Of a stretch of 64,000 nt of DNA, positions 5,198 to 61,718 are shown in pieces. A program made the translations under genes and the position numbers. Location of the stretch: positions 96,001-160,000 of the IMG/VR virus record IMGVR_UViG_3300032307_000764. The stretch is one strand, 5' to 3'. The stretch's first letter is position 1. Each line of letters starts with the position of its first letter. Source of the DNA: a virus (lineage: Duplodnaviria > Caudoviricetes). The notes under the pieces were generated by a model. It was not told where the DNA came from. It did no database searches and worked only from the letters and a program-made list of their open reading frames with translations.

Positions 5198-5797
5198 ATG
5201 AAAAATATTCAAGATTACAAAAGATTTTGTCTCAATGAAGCTGAAGAACTAATGTGGACTAGGCATCTTGGTAACAATGCTAACAGTTACGAAGACAGGG
5301 CTAAAAATTACTATAATTTATCTAGCAGTCCTGGTATACTTTCTAAAACACAGAATTTCTTCCAGAAAATGGAAGACAGAATCAACAACATGGCTAGAGT
5401 AGGTAAAGGACTTGCTCAACAAAATAGATCAGGAAGATCGGGTAACTTAGATACTGGATACGAAAATCTATTTGGACTAGTTTCTGTTGTTCCTAATGTT
5501 CTTAAAAGAGTTTTTGGTCCAACTAAATTCGAAATAGCTAAAAAAGCTCCAGCAAAGGATGACGAGGTTAATCTTGAATTCATGAGACACACTAATGAAG
5601 ATTTTGCTAAGAGTGAACTTCCTAACATTAGATCTGAAAAGCAATTAGAAGATAATATCGCTGACCTTTATCAAAAAGGTGAAGTTAAAAAAGGAGAAGT
5701 ACCTGTACTTGATGATATAGCAATGAATAGAATTAATCTATATTATACAAGACAAGAAAACCCAAACCAGCCAATATTCCAACCAAATAATCTATAA
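5198..5797 (+). CDS. Hypothetical protein with capsid-targeting-like N-terminus
   Basis: MKNIQDYKRFCLNE; GATATATA at 5169. Confidence 0.6.
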   Translation: MKNIQDYKRFCLNEAEELMWTRHLGNNANSYEDRAKNYYNLSSSPGILSKTQNFFQKMEDRINNMARVGKGLAQQNRSGRSGNLDTGYENLFGLVSVVPNVLKRVFGPTKFEIAKKAPAKDDEVNLEFMRHTNEDFAKSELPNIRSEKQLEDNIADLYQKGEVKKGEVPVLDDIAMNRINLYYTRQENPNQPIFQPNNL

Positions 5798-5799
5798 AA

Positions 5800-6546
5800 A
5801 TGAAAAAATTCTCTTCAATAGTAGAAAAGAAAAAACAAGAATTACACGAAAACCAGGTAATAAACGAGAGAAATCTTTATCTTGACTTTGCAAAGAAATA
5901 CCATAAAAAACATGGTGTATCTGGACCTTTTGATAAAAAATTCCAAGGAGATAAAAAGGCTCAGGAAGAATATATGGAAGGACTAGGTAAGGCTTGGACG
6001 GAGCACAAAGAAAAGAAAGGTATCAAGAATAAGTCTGAAAAGGGTAAGTTTGATTTTGCTAAGAAAAAAATGAACGAATCTAAGGCTTTTGATATGGCTA
6101 AGCAAATGATAGGAGATGGCGGAGAGCCTAACTATCACTTCGTTACGATGTGCGACGACTATCTTTTTGAAAAAGATGGAGAAATGCTAAGATATAGCAA
6201 AGATATGATGGCAGCACCGCTTAAAATCAAAACTACGCCTACTTTAGGAGCTTATACGTTCGGCCCTTTCATGAACATTGAAGAATCTAAAATGTTTGCT
6301 GCTAGTATCGAGTTAGATGAAATCAATGGACCTAGAATGGTTACTATCGAGGACAGAAAAACAGGTGAGGTGTTTACTAAATATTTAACTTGTAAGCTTC
6401 AACCAGTTTGGGATGAACACGAGGAAGAAAACTTTGAGTCTATCGAAGACGAAGACGAAGAAGAATTTGAAGATCCTAATTCAGAGTACACTTACGGTGA
6501 CGAGACTGAGGACGAAGAAACAGAAGACGACGGAGAGGAAGAATAA
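5800..6546 (+). CDS. Hypothetical protein, acidic C-terminal tail
   Basis: Long ORF with A-rich leader; D/E-rich end; MKKFSSIVE start. Confidence 0.6.
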   Translation: MKKFSSIVEKKKQELHENQVINERNLYLDFAKKYHKKHGVSGPFDKKFQGDKKAQEEYMEGLGKAWTEHKEKKGIKNKSEKGKFDFAKKKMNESKAFDMAKQMIGDGGEPNYHFVTMCDDYLFEKDGEMLRYSKDMMAAPLKIKTTPTLGAYTFGPFMNIEESKMFAASIELDEINGPRMVTIEDRKTGEVFTKYLTCKLQPVWDEHEEENFESIEDEDEEEFEDPNSEYTYGDETEDEETEDDGEEE

Positions 6547-6548
6547 AA

Positions 6549-6992
6549 ATGTTAACTCCTTCACAAAGCCAAGCTCTTTATCCTGTACTTCAACATTACA
6601 CAGGAACTAAGATAAATTCTATCTCCGATATGGGAGATGGACTTATCTTTAGTACCTCTTGGGGCGAGTCTGGTTTATTGGTTGAGAATAATAAAGGTGA
6701 TTGGGAGATAATAATAGGCCAGGAATTAGTGGATAGAATAGAAAAAGAAGTATTCGAAGCATTAGTTAAACCTGAGACAAAGAGTAACATTGAGGAATAT
6801 ATTAAGATTTTAGATCATTTAGCTAAAGATTCTAAAGTAAGTTATAGATCTAAAGTTTTAGTTTCCCAGATACTTGGTATACTAGAAGAATTTATTTTAA
6901 ACTCTAATTTTGTACCAAAGAAAGAAATAAAGTTTGGACCTTTTTGGATTTTTAGCTATAAAGGAAATAAGTTCATAAACTCATTAAATTAA
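6549..6992 (+). CDS. Hypothetical protein
   Basis: Tightly packed in operon. Confidence 0.6.
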   Translation: MLTPSQSQALYPVLQHYTGTKINSISDMGDGLIFSTSWGESGLLVENNKGDWEIIIGQELVDRIEKEVFEALVKPETKSNIEEYIKILDHLAKDSKVSYRSKVLVSQILGILEEFILNSNFVPKKEIKFGPFWIFSYKGNKFINSLN

Positions 6993-6993
6993 A

Positions 6994-59167: not shown

Positions 59168-59182
59168 CCAAGTAGCTTATTC

Positions 59183-59716
59183 TTATTTGTTTTTAAAACC
59201 CCCGAGTCTTCCTAATAGTCTATATCCAGGTTCTGCTTCTGGATTAATTAAGTGGATATCGCCAAGACCATATTGTTCAATATTAAGAGGTACACTTTGT
59301 ACTATCTCTATAAATTTTCCAGGGGTCATTGATTCATTAGGGATCTTTTCATAGTAATCATCGCTGAAATAATCAACTATATCAGAGTCTTCCATATCTC
59401 TAACATTTGAAAATTCCATTGATTCCATTTCATCCTCAGTAAATTCTTTTGATTTTTCGTAGATGTAAATTCTTCTATATTTCTCGTCTTCCTCAAGATA
59501 CCCATTACTCCAAACCCCCATCTTGATTAGGTCCTGTTCTGTTGGCATAACCCAAACCTCATAGGAGATATCATAAGGTGTATCATAAACACATGCAGAG
59601 GTAGTTTTTAGAGAAACTCCATTAACAACGATCTCACCGGAATTATCGATTATAGAATCCCACCCTGCTTCATTTAACTTATTAAATTGATTGAAAGATT
59701 TGATTCGATTTAGCAT
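59183..59716 (-). CDS. Tagged acidic protein with C-terminal tail motif
   Basis: RIKSFNQFNKLNE; ends GYRLLGRLGGFKNK; GATATATA at 59721-59728. Confidence 0.65.
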   Translation of the reverse strand: MLNRIKSFNQFNKLNEAGWDSIIDNSGEIVVNGVSLKTTSACVYDTPYDISYEVWVMPTEQDLIKMGVWSNGYLEEDEKYRRIYIYEKSKEFTEDEMESMEFSNVRDMEDSDIVDYFSDDYYEKIPNESMTPGKFIEIVQSVPLNIEQYGLGDIHLINPEAEPGYRLLGRLGGFKNK

Positions 59717-59730
59717 GATCTATATATCGA

Positions 59731-60798
59731 TCAAATACCAAATCTATTTAGTATACTAGAACCCTTCTCTATATCCTTGGCTTCTTCACTACCAAATTCT
59801 TCCTCGAATCTAGCTAAAGTTTTTGGGTTAGATTTTCTTAAGTACTTTACTATCTTACCTAGAGCTAAAGGATTTTCCTCTTTAAGCTTTCTTAAAGCAA
59901 TCAACAATTTTTCTACATCCCCTATAGCACCATTTGACAAAATAGCAATATACAAATCCCTAGCAGGAACTAAAATATCAGTTGTTGGAGCATAAGAATT
60001 TTCTCTTCTAATTAGACCATCGTATCTTTTATTTACAACATAAATTATTGCTTTTCTAAAAAATTCATCTAGCTTCTCCATTGACGAAGTTCCAATGCTA
60101 ATTATGGCTCTGTTTCTGTTCATCTCATCTTTAGCTGAATATCCTTCCTTGTTAGTTAACCTTATATTGAGATTTGGCTCAAATGATACCCCAGTTATCT
60201 GATCGCACAAATTAAAAGGATCTACATTTATTTTAATATCTGAGTATTCATATATTTTACCACCGTTAAAAAAAACACCCTCGAATTCTTTATAAGTGGG
60301 AAGAGTATTTAAAACATCATGATCCGTTATCATCGAAGATAATCCACTGTTGTTCTTATACTCTCCTATAATCTCCTTGGCATTATTCATCTTGATAACT
60401 TTACTCCAATTAGATTTTATCCATTTTTCTAAATCCCCCTCGTTTAATCCTCTCTCCTTTCTTAGCAATATAAATCTGGTAATCGAGTATTTTATAAGCT
60501 CCTCTAAAGTATCGAAGCATCCATACCCATAAGTATTTCCAGAAGACTCGCTAATCTGACACCATTGATTATTATATTTGTATAATCTAGTGTTACCAGC
60601 ATAAGCACCCTTGATATAAACTCTACCGGTTTTAACAGCCTTAAATAGATCCTCGATTGGTAAAGACCTTCCGTTAGCAACTAAGGTCTGTAGGAATTTT
60701 CCATCCTCACTATTTCTAATGTAGTCCATTATTACAGGACCTGCTGAAGGATCCTCAGATTCATTAAGATAGCTTTTATATTCTAGTAGATGCTTCAT
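59731..60798 (-). CDS. Tagged protein with C-terminal tail motif
   Basis: MKHLLEYKSYLNE; ends KGSSILNRFGI. Confidence 0.65.
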   Translation of the reverse strand: MKHLLEYKSYLNESEDPSAGPVIMDYIRNSEDGKFLQTLVANGRSLPIEDLFKAVKTGRVYIKGAYAGNTRLYKYNNQWCQISESSGNTYGYGCFDTLEELIKYSITRFILLRKERGLNEGDLEKWIKSNWSKVIKMNNAKEIIGEYKNNSGLSSMITDHDVLNTLPTYKEFEGVFFNGGKIYEYSDIKINVDPFNLCDQITGVSFEPNLNIRLTNKEGYSAKDEMNRNRAIISIGTSSMEKLDEFFRKAIIYVVNKRYDGLIRRENSYAPTTDILVPARDLYIAILSNGAIGDVEKLLIALRKLKEENPLALGKIVKYLRKSNPKTLARFEEEFGSEEAKDIEKGSSILNRFGI

Positions 60799-60809
60799 AA
60801 GATATTAAA

Positions 60810-61718
60810 TTAGAAAATTCCAAGTCTTCCTAGAATCCTAGCTCCCTGTTTAATTCCGTTATCTTCCCAATTTTCAGGACTAGGTAAATACACAGATATA
60901 CCAGGATGTTTACTAATCATCTTCTCGAACTTATCTTTATACGAATCGGAAGAAGCTCCATCCTCAGTATTTAATTCTTTAATAAGATCATTTATTTCTT
61001 CTGGTGGAATTCCCTCCATACTTGCTCTATCCTTAAGGTGAGTATTAAAAACATAAACGATCTTAGGTACAAGCCCTTCGATATTTGTAATAGGGTAGAT
61101 AAGATCTGGGTGATCTGTTAAATATCCGCTAGCTCCTTTTCTTCTAATGTATCCTGATTTTTGTATTGTGTAGACAATTCCCGAATTACCAAACTTGAGA
61201 GCTACAGTTCCATTCTTTCTTTCGATAGGAGTAGAAACGATTTGAGCTCCATGCTTTTCTAGATCCTTTAATATAGGTAACGATTCCAACCCACTATCAA
61301 ATGGATTAAAATCCTTAGCACTATCTCTATCCTCTTTTATTAATGAATCCATCATCTTCCAGACATGATCACGAAAGACCCATCTAAGCTCATTTTGCGG
61401 AACATCATTAGGTATACCCTCAGGAGTAAAAGAAAACTTTAAACCATATTGCTGAGGATCTCCTCCTTTTGTGGGATCATAGATAATACCTAGTGAATTT
61501 TCTTTACCTTTCCATTTATAAAAAACCTCATATTGGTTATTAGATAGGTGCTTAAGAATAAAACCTCCGAAGGACGGGGAACTGATAAGAGTATTAGCTA
61601 GTCTCTTTGTTGTTAGATTCCCAAGATCCCTGATTAGCTTAATTATCTTTGAATCCATATACGGATCCTCTGATTCGTTAATTCTTGAAAATTCATCAAA
61701 TGTTACTATCTTCTTCAT
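60810..61718 (-). CDS. Tagged protein with C-terminal tail motif; paralog of 43341-43943
   Basis: MKKIVTFDEFSRINE; ends QGARILGRLGIF. Confidence 0.65.
   Translation of the reverse strand: MKKIVTFDEFSRINESEDPYMDSKIIKLIRDLGNLTTKRLANTLISSPSFGGFILKHLSNNQYEVFYKWKGKENSLGIIYDPTKGGDPQQYGLKFSFTPEGIPNDVPQNELRWVFRDHVWKMMDSLIKEDRDSAKDFNPFDSGLESLPILKDLEKHGAQIVSTPIERKNGTVALKFGNSGIVYTIQKSGYIRRKGASGYLTDHPDLIYPITNIEGLVPKIVYVFNTHLKDRASMEGIPPEEINDLIKELNTEDGASSDSYKDKFEKMISKHPGISVYLPSPENWEDNGIKQGARILGRLGIF

Follow-up and report, generated by a model that had tools for sequence, protein, structure and literature searches.

A common N-terminal peptide on unrelated late proteins of an uncultivated jumbo phage as a likely counterpart of the T4 capsid-targeting sequence

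Analysis of a 64,000-nucleotide stretch of phage DNA (the window, bases 96001-160000 of the 248,191-bp linear IMG/VR record IMGVR_UViG_3300032307_000764; the full record is referred to as G000) reveals one short N-terminal peptide at the start of many otherwise unrelated proteins. This peptide, hereafter the tag, is 13 residues long and follows the consensus M-K-H-I-K-L-F-E-Q-F-[ILV]-N-E or a variant of it (MKHIKLFEQFINE in one written form). The curated set comprises about 46 of the 335 open reading frames (ORFs) of the record, and about 24 of these are located in the window. We consider it likely that the tag represents the form which the T4 capsid-targeting sequence (CTS) takes in this clade of phages. 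This reading draws on the tag itself, its modularity, its link with the promoter-like element GATATATA, the families of the head protease and capsid protein and the hydrophobic-Asn-Glu sites that these have in common, all of them read from the DNA sequence. In T4, the internal proteins IPI, IPII, IPIII and Alt carry the CTS, and gp21, the prohead protease, removes it (Mullaney & Black 1996, as reviewed in PMC3012670, PMC5694885).

Identification of the tag

ORFs were called on the whole record (33% G+C; CheckV completeness 85%) by a simple longest-ORF rule, which at times sets the start codon too far upstream; such starts were corrected by hand. The genome-wide survey of N-termini proposed along with the original prediction was carried out with a position matrix refined iteratively from the N-termini (consensus I-[KL]-x-[FY]-x-x-F-[IV]-[NS]-E). 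With a threshold of at least 9 bits within the first 25 residues, the matrix matches 29 of the 335 ORF N-termini as against 4 of 63,765 internal positions, a contrast that is partly circular because the matrix was trained on those N-termini. A few loose members of the curated set are doubtful, the adenylate kinase above all (Table 1). The RNA ligase ORF at 44684-45802 reached a matrix score of 16 but is without the promoter element, and it was dropped as a chance match.

Beyond the tag, the proteins are unrelated in sequence, as a blastp comparison of 49 candidates without their first 25 residues returned a single related pair. The claim of the original prediction that more than 20 unrelated proteins have a common N-terminal tag thus stands for the window. 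Its eleven strong examples all have the sequences ascribed to them (those starting at 10796, 12606, 13132, 24279, 30370, 55584 and 56351 on the plus strand and at 51545, 59716, 60798 and 61718 on the minus strand). Its looser examples are likewise present at 5198, 9005, 15931, 27077 and 54973 (plus strand) and at 16829, 43943, 47663, 49360, 53631, 54168, 54910 and 57325 (minus strand), whereas the one at 22393 is doubtful.

Distribution of the matrix matches along the genome is uneven. Of the 92 ORFs of the window 15 have a match, as do 9 of 75 in the right arm of the genome and 4 of the 32 that surround the head genes, as compared to none of 49 in the glycan, tail and baseplate block and one weak match among the 65 ORFs of the early cassette array. 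In the window, the tag is absent from the gp32-like protein, the helicase, both halves of the split family-B polymerase, the glycosyltransferase, ClpP and RNA ligase, and reading of the N-termini shows that the ribonucleotide reductase and the topoisomerase are untagged as well. The motif is therefore not equally frequent on early replication genes, which would have spoken against the original prediction.

Conservation and modularity of the tag among relatives

More than 120 IMG/VR stretches contain the exact coding pattern for MKHIKLFEQF, and the peptide starts at least 115 distinct proteins belonging to 55 body families. In these 115 proteins, position 11 is I, V or L in 101, position 12 is mostly N, S or T and position 13 is E in 102, and there is no conservation beyond. 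Where the immediate site is absent, LNE or INE is often present a few residues further on (FCSSLNE, FEASLNE, FINVNE). Because of these displaced sites we read the tag as a targeting helix followed by a separable cut site. The first part is proposed to be a short amphipathic helix, I-K-L-F-E-Q-F, with hydrophobic residues at i, i+3 and i+6, and the second part, 0-6 residues on, a hydrophobic-(N/S/T)-Glu site. A hydrophobic-x-Glu is present within 8 residues of the core in 30 of 45 tags. In the AlphaFold2 model of the 355-aa protein encoded at 59731-60798, a tag helix (residues 2-11, predicted local distance difference test score (pLDDT) below 50) is joined through a linker to a body which starts at residue 19; the model (pLDDT 78) has no convincing match among PDB structures or AlphaFold clusters.

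Orthologs of tagged proteins with 27-48% body identity are still tagged. The relative G006, for example, retains the tag on its ortholog of the 9005..9694 ORF (MRRLRNFKEYQLLKEN, 31% body identity), and its ortholog of the 10796..12313 ORF starts MKRIQNFKTFNSVNE (31% identity). Tagged genes flanking the head module keep the tag across 80 relatives, the most conserved being those at G000 14905, 23117, 23979, 30327 and 31276. In 13 homologs of the 355-aa protein N12, E13 and S14 are invariant, and one homolog has a near-identical body but carries the tag variant of the neighbouring gene, which points to tag exchange. Taken together, these comparisons indicate that the tag is modular and is kept under selection.

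The more distant relative G002, an IMG/VR phage with a capsid protein 41% identical to the one described here, has 33 matrix matches, many of them paralogs of one family, and has none of the 46 cargo proteins in common. A multi-copy family of G002 comprises at least 15 tagged paralogs starting MKHIKLFEQFISEEETPKLSAKDIFIPRRLKERW (e.g. L124:408-1040), and many copies of its C-terminal domain are also present in Lak phages, in Vibrio phages of about 195 kb and in huge phages, LR756501 having it in 14 places. Tagged genes are not clearly more variable than others: 8 of 46 are shared with G006 and 6 of 46 with G007, as against 55 and 34, respectively, of 243 untagged genes.

No cultured tag-bearing relative was found among the named relatives searched. 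The matrix has no match in a 50-kb stretch of Tenacibaculum phage PTm1, and the coding pattern for K-L-F-E-x-F is at background in PTm1, MaF61, LR756500 and Lak-A2 as compared to 24 copies in G002. Neither megablast of 20 kb of the window nor tblastn of the 177-aa cargo against GenBank phages gave a match. A literature search with the motif strings also gave no match, and a comparative paper on jumbo phages makes no mention of the tag.

Head protease, capsid protein and a common putative cut site

The gp21-type prohead protease on which the original prediction depended is encoded at G000 18267-20300, as part of a 677-aa protease-scaffold ORF. Residues 21-190 of this ORF correspond to Peptidase_S77 and S80, with scores above the Pfam cut-offs (PF03420 (S77), 38.7 bits against a cut-off of 27; PF20034, 33.4 bits) and a match to phrog_207 (E 2e-37), and its GELDHP and SSRAAG motifs align with GELNHP and SRG of T4 gp21. 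The C-terminal 480 residues are scaffold-like and contain about 13 tandem 14-residue repeats (ISYSEYLAENLDKN), each with YLAE; T4 gp22 is likewise rich in IAE and LAE. An S77 protease in an ORF of 618-688 aa was found in all five large tag-bearing contigs tested, and the repeat architecture of the fusion is also seen in G002. The next gene encodes a gp23-type major capsid protein (Gp23 match from residue 98, E 7e-39). Its nearest named relatives, at 30-43% identity, are those of Lak megaphages, LR7565xx huge phages, Tenacibaculum phage PTm1 and Flavobacterium phage MaF61, which suggests that the host is probably a member of Bacteroidota. A small share of the sequence is present in one lake-water run, and freshwater is the likely source of tag-bearing phages.

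The motif at the end of the tag recurs in both of these head proteins (a slash marks the proposed cut). With nine copies of [ILV]NE, the protease-scaffold ORF has the highest density of this motif in the genome (Poisson p 9e-8), and NINE/SFG (residues 188-194) is located exactly at the end of the protease domain. [ILVM]NE(S/N) is present at the protease/scaffold junction in 40 of the 40 orthologs shown (of 48 distinct), while the flanking residues vary. C-terminal self-cleavage has been reported for gp21-family proteases (PMC5694885). In the capsid protein, HSLNE/SAGAY (residues 39-48) is invariant in 12 orthologs of 68-87% identity, and is followed by a variable Gly-rich stretch and then by the conserved core. 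The N-terminus of the capsid protein, ELLN..W.P[IL][IL]E, resembles AELLNKWKPLLE of T4 gp23 by eye, and the gp23 propeptide has its end at FLTE/A. Between tags and protease sites, the P2 residue showed no covariation in G000 and G002.

If the tag works as a CTS, the tagged genes would be transcribed together with the head genes from GATATATA elements, and the tag helix would dock each newly made protein on the scaffolding core, that is, on the C-terminal 480 residues of the protease-scaffold fusion. After closure of the gp23-type shell, the gp21-type protease would cut behind the Glu of the tag, and it would make the same cut at SLNE/S in the N-terminal region of the capsid protein, at NINE/S where its own domain meets the scaffold, and within the scaffold at the YLAE repeats. 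The freed proteins would remain in the head together with the DNA, and at least some of them would be delivered into the host cell upon infection. That the proteins dock, are cut, stay in the head and are ejected is our inference.

Several observations weigh against such a role of the tag. No hydrophobic-x-Glu is present within 8 residues of the core in 16 of 46 tags. T4 internal proteins are DNA-associated and basic in nature, whereas the tagged proteins are not basic (median pI 5.4 as against 5.8 for the rest, p 0.33). Two relatives with closer capsid proteins carry fewer tags by the same matrix (7 in G006 and 11 in G007). Alignment of the capsid family with T4 gp23 by hhalign covers residues 291-545, the C-terminal half, and does not confirm homology of the N-terminal or propeptide region, so that support for the capsid cut site comes from the motif and from the match by eye. 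It is also not obvious why a MoxR-type AAA ATPase and a DUF2201 peptidase should be packaged, and their VWA partner (9703-10764), encoded in the same operon, is untagged. Finally, the genome contains two ClpP-family genes (window 39624-40190; G000 229936-230508), which could point to a degradation signal.

Tad3 homolog and other putative cargo

Most of the tagged proteins have no match in Pfam and PHROG searches. The ORF at 55584-56354 is, as judged from its matches, a homolog of Tad3, an inhibitor of type I Thoeris defence. It matches Pfam PF25185 (E 4.5e-21, 75 bits against a cut-off of 27), and the solved Tad3 structure is covered over its full length (9b7d_B residues 3-190 of 194 against query residues 45-249, E 2e-35). 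Inhibition of the Thoeris sensor ThsB is taken from the Tad3 literature, where Tad3 has been reported to block ThsB via its N-terminal helices (PMC13728456). As the solved Tad3 aligns only from query residue 45, the tag is an addition to the known protein. The complete Tad3 domain is preceded by a 43-residue N-terminal extension with two hydrophobic-Asn-Glu sites. Since this extension ends in TLNE/G, a cut at the second site would free a protein with a near-native Tad3 N-terminus.

Other tagged proteins include one with a CHAP/NlpC-P60 domain (G000 226615-227388) and a nucleotidyltransferase-like protein whose gene adjoins the ORF in portal position. The 50109..51545 ORF has a weak OmpA-like (peptidoglycan-binding) match at residues 317-383, with 23.7 bits below the Pfam cut-off of 27.2. 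On the basis of these domain matches, candidates for delivery into the host are the Tad3-type Thoeris inhibitor, the CHAP peptidoglycan hydrolase and possibly the OmpA-like protein.

Such host-acting functions are difficult to reconcile with the explanation in which head targeting is right but the effector repertoire is wrong, the tag marking core or scaffold parts that serve assembly only and are cut up and expelled during maturation, as is the case for T4 gp67, gp68 and gp22. The position of the most conserved tagged genes, which flank the head genes, would agree with this explanation, and so would the lack of a recognisable function in most of the cargo. Also speaking against it, the tagged bodies, the scaffold itself aside, are not enriched in internal cut sites. 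We consider it unlikely that the tag as a whole has this meaning, while some of the tagged proteins may indeed serve assembly only and be expelled rather than injected.

A conserved C-terminal motif

Fourteen ORFs, where about one would be expected, have a further conserved peptide, approximately K-G-x-S-[IL]-L-x-R-[FL]-G-[IF], at or near their very end, and ten of these fourteen also carry the N-terminal tag (Fisher p 8e-7). In the 13 homologs of the 355-aa protein, K-G-x-x-I-x-N-R is invariant at the C-terminus. The conserved C-terminus of the scaffold, AAELEKRFKK, contains L-x-K-R-F, which is faintly similar to the motif.

By analogy with encapsulin cargo peptides, the C-terminal motif may serve as a second address. 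In encapsulins, a short terminal peptide sends unrelated cargo into a shell of the HK97 fold, and G-x-S-[IL]-L-x-R-[FL]-G on the ten N-tagged proteins has the same format. Encapsulin peptides differ from the N-terminal tag in that they sit at the C-terminus, attach directly to the shell protein and stay uncleaved. A bolder proposal, which we put forward tentatively and regard as less probable than the CTS reading itself, is that a two-address system is in use throughout a clade of uncultivated jumbo phages whose hosts are probably Bacteroidota. Here, a cleavable N-terminal MKHIKLFEQF(I/V/L)(N/S/T)E, conserved better than the capsid protein, and on a subset a C-terminal G-x-S-I-L-N-R-F-G that mimics a scaffold- or shell-binding tail would together load a large, fast-changing and sequence-predictable arsenal, including ready-made anti-defence proteins such as Tad3 that would be active from the first second of infection. 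If so, the genomes of thousands of environmental phages could directly reveal which proteins these phages inject.

Peptides at both termini would also suit a docking or degradation signal for another hub. ClpX substrates are known for N- and C-terminal recognition peptides, and the genome encodes a DnaJ-like protein besides the two CLP_protease ORFs. The tag might thus address late accessory proteins to a phage or host Clp unfoldase that feeds the two ClpP homologs, or to a chaperone, and so set their lifetime or folding, and the conserved C-terminal peptide on ten tagged proteins fits this picture. A ClpX-type unfoldase was not identified here, although no systematic search for one was made. 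More importantly, a hub of this kind does not explain why a hydrophobic-Asn-Glu is common to the end of the tag, the N-terminal region of the capsid protein and the protease/scaffold junction, why a T4 CTS scores on the matrix, or why tagging is most consistent beside the head genes in the 80 relatives. It appears improbable to us, slightly more so than a role in assembly only.

The promoter-like element and expression of tagged genes

The original prediction had noted that tagged genes mostly follow GATATATA or a gene that does, and this association is strong. [GA]ATATATA is present within 70 nt upstream of 32 of the 46 tagged genes as compared to 28 of the 289 others (odds ratio 21, Fisher p 1e-17), and most of the remaining 14 tagged genes sit directly downstream of a promoter-bearing gene. 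From the end of the element to the ATG the distance is 1-23 nt in tagged genes, being 1-8 nt in 18 of the 32 and 13-23 nt in the remainder (e.g. window 12594, 27064, 30358). The element seems to behave like a late promoter, by analogy with TATAAATA of T4. If it is a -10-like box, many late mRNAs would be leaderless or nearly so. Untagged genes located behind the element include an 863-aa ORF in portal position, the protease, two further head-module genes and two tail-region genes.

Short leaders of this kind raise the question whether the conserved start is an expression feature, an A/U-rich, unstructured run of a dozen codons that helps translation initiation on late mRNAs while the peptide itself is functionless. 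The spacing of 1-8 nt in 18 of the 32 promoter-bearing tagged genes and the A/T-rich N-terminal codons would be in line with it. However, synonymous codons at the conserved F (TTT:TTC 27:14, genome-wide 65:35%) and E (GAA:GAG 11:8, genome-wide 66:34%) follow genome-wide usage, amino acids are kept while codons vary, and conservation acts at the protein level. In addition, other genes driven by GATATATA (portal-position, protease, tail) are without the peptide, the tag persists in phages with differing upstream sequences, and conservation stops exactly at the Glu. We give this explanation very little weight.

Five nucleotides behind a GATATATA element and adjoining the head genes, the minus strand at G000 28769-30250 encodes a RimK-like ATP-grasp ligase whose C-terminal domain is Zn_protease-like; it may modify protein C-termini late in infection. 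Its presence could suggest that a modifying enzyme recognises the tag as its leader, in the manner of systems for ribosomally synthesized and post-translationally modified peptides, but this is hardly credible because the genome record (85% complete) has no radical-SAM domain, the tagged proteins are full-size and folded, with up to 686 aa and a complete Tad3 among them, and the ATP-grasp link is positional only.

Comparison with T4 and other phages

The tag and the T4 CTS are alike in being N-terminal peptides of 10-13 residues on unrelated proteins with a hydrophobic-x-Glu end, and M-K-T-F-K-E-F-I-K-E of T4 can be aligned directly with I-K-L-F-E-Q-F-I-N-E here. Both phages have a gp21-family protease, a gp23-family shell and tagged genes under a late promoter-like element, and both have anti-defence cargo, namely IPI* acting against GmrSD in T4 and Tad3 in the present phage. 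A pattern search of the T4 genome yields four ORFs starting MKT[YF]xEF, which by length and position we take to be IPIII, IPII, IPI and a 54-aa ORF. On the matrix derived here, the four T4 ORFs score 11.2, 2.8, 2.8 and 1.0 bits. MKTFKEFIKE, with 11.2 bits, is above the threshold, while the 2.8 bits of MKTYQEFIAE are reached by 0.12% of internal 10-mers. The scale beyond T4 that had been predicted is borne out relative to T4, with about 46 tagged ORFs against four by pattern search.

The differences from T4 are also clear. The present tag is longer by three residues at its N-terminus (MKH) and strongly prefers Asn at P2, and it is bipartite, as a spacer can lie between its targeting half and its cleavage half. 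Tagged genes occur dispersed between replication genes, as single late-promoter cassettes. Ten tagged proteins have a conserved C-terminal peptide, and the protease is fused to the scaffold. The T4 CTS has been established by experiment, whereas the tag is known from genome sequences.

A count of about 50 head proteins is already on record for giant phages, SPN3US among them (PMC5694885), and such a number would not in itself be unprecedented here. In phiKZ, 201phi2-1 and SPN3US, jumbo phages with about 50 head proteins, a gp21-family protease cleaves behind Glu; the propeptides of head and ejection proteins have been proposed to direct them to the prohead, and ejection into the host has been described for many of these proteins (PMC5694885, PMC7411985). 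However, those propeptides are mostly longer than 100 residues, have no common consensus and are cut at (A/S/G)-x-E, and only 8 head proteins of SPN3US are processed, whereas here one short address is present on dozens of proteins. It is already known that T-even phages have diverse internal proteins with only a conserved CTS in common (PMC3012670, PMC5694885); what is new is one short address common to dozens of proteins.

Proteins that enter with the DNA decide the first minutes of infection, and most of them are unknown in the case of jumbo phages. A tag that acts as the CTS does in T4 would provide a sequence rule by which the proteins packaged throughout an uncultivated clade could be listed, about 46 for this phage and at least 55 IMG/VR families behind the exact 10-mer. 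This rule would mark proteins of mostly unknown function as candidate host-takeover or anti-defence factors. The Tad3 homolog with its removable tag would be the second pre-loaded immune inhibitor after T4 IPI*. In phages outside E. coli, the 13-residue tag is a candidate tool by which foreign proteins might be brought into capsids.

Tagged ORFs and neighbouring genes

Table 1. Tagged ORFs of the window and ORFs with the C-terminal motif. Positions are those of the window unless G000 is given; slashes mark proposed cuts; the element is GATATATA unless another form is given.
Position	Strand	Length (aa)	Class	N-terminus	Element at	Other features
5198..5797	+	199	tagged	MKNIQDYKRFCLNE	5169-5176	no Pfam or PHROG match
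9005..9694	+	229	loosely tagged	MRRILGWSEFKLFEQ	8983-8990	DUF2201_N metallopeptidase-like domain from residue 46
10796..12313	+	505	tagged	MKRIYNFNEFVNE/G	10756-10773 (two copies)	AAA_5 (MoxR-type) ATPase domain from residue 132
12606..13139	+	177	tagged	MRHIKLFEQFLNE/D	12594-12601	IMG/VR homologs start MKHIKLFEQFL(F/L/N)E
13132..13449	+	105	tagged	MNNNILSYNEFITE/S		downstream of 12606 in operon
15931..16527	+	198	loosely tagged	MNHLLRFENYKPIYE	15919-15926 (AATATATA)	
16524..16829	-	101	loosely tagged	(V)KKILTYKLFEQVYLND		
22393..22986	+		doubtful	MKIKNFKEFGSLG (N-extension of about 15 residues)	none	adenylate kinase, ADK domain from residue 20; first motif half only, no Glu site
24279..24761	+	160	tagged	MQILRFSDFINE/Q	24255-24262	
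27077..27823	+	248	tagged	MILRLNNFVVE/Q	27064-27071	
30370..31734	+	454	tagged	MNKKVLSFNKFNE/Q	30358-30365	
43341..43943	-	200	loosely tagged	MSIKNYPEFKKIQE		C-terminal motif GANILKRFGG
46818..47663	-	281	loosely tagged	MKKNKRRIKTFKNW	47671-47678	C-terminal GSSLLSRF
48557..49360	-	267	tagged	MKTKHIKMFESFSSE/N	49384-49391	
50109..51545	-	478	tagged	MEMKKQVLSFTEFINE/A	51565-51572	
51571..53631	-	686	loosely tagged	MKHLSLFNDFDKVEE		weak PHROG match to tape-measure family
53644..54168	-	174	loosely tagged	MKNLKSFSEILE		
54350..54910	-	186	loosely tagged	MKNLKSFHLFEN	54915-54922	C-terminal GGSLLNRFGDI
54973..55521	+	182	loosely tagged	MKNLTGYETYLKSGRVNE/Q	54952-54959	
55584..56354	+	256	tagged	MKRIKDFKGFINE/QEE...STLNE/GSVD		Tad3 homolog (Thoeris inhibitor); PF25185; PDB 9b7d_B
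56351..56860	+	169	tagged	MIHLRSYSNFLNE/S		
56927..57325	-	132	tagged	MQHIKLFEQFVSS	57346-57353	targeting half only, no nearby Glu site
59183..59716	-	177	tagged	MLNRIKSFNQFNKLNE/A	59721-59728	C-terminal YRLLGRLGG
59731..60798	-	355	tagged	MKHLLEYKSYLNE/S		C-terminal KGSSILNRFGI
60810..61718	-	302	tagged	MKKIVTFDEFSRINE/S	61723-61730 (AATATATA)	C-terminal GARILGRLGIF
63824..64000	-		tagged	MSLDHIKLFEQFSHSGE		3' part of the ORF; N-terminus just past the window end, at G000 160090
43341-61718; G000 166234-166668, 195206-196267, 220058-221494	- (window genes)					ORFs with C-terminal motif

The operon at window 9005-12313 consists of the tagged DUF2201_N metallopeptidase-like protein, the untagged VWA-like DUF2201 protein and the tagged MoxR-type AAA_5 ATPase. 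The family-B DNA polymerase of the window is split in two genes about 16 kb apart (16894-18300 and 33954-35123). In the first gene, the exonuclease domain is followed by the beginning of the polymerase domain, and the second one covers positions 138-387 of the DNA_pol_B profile.

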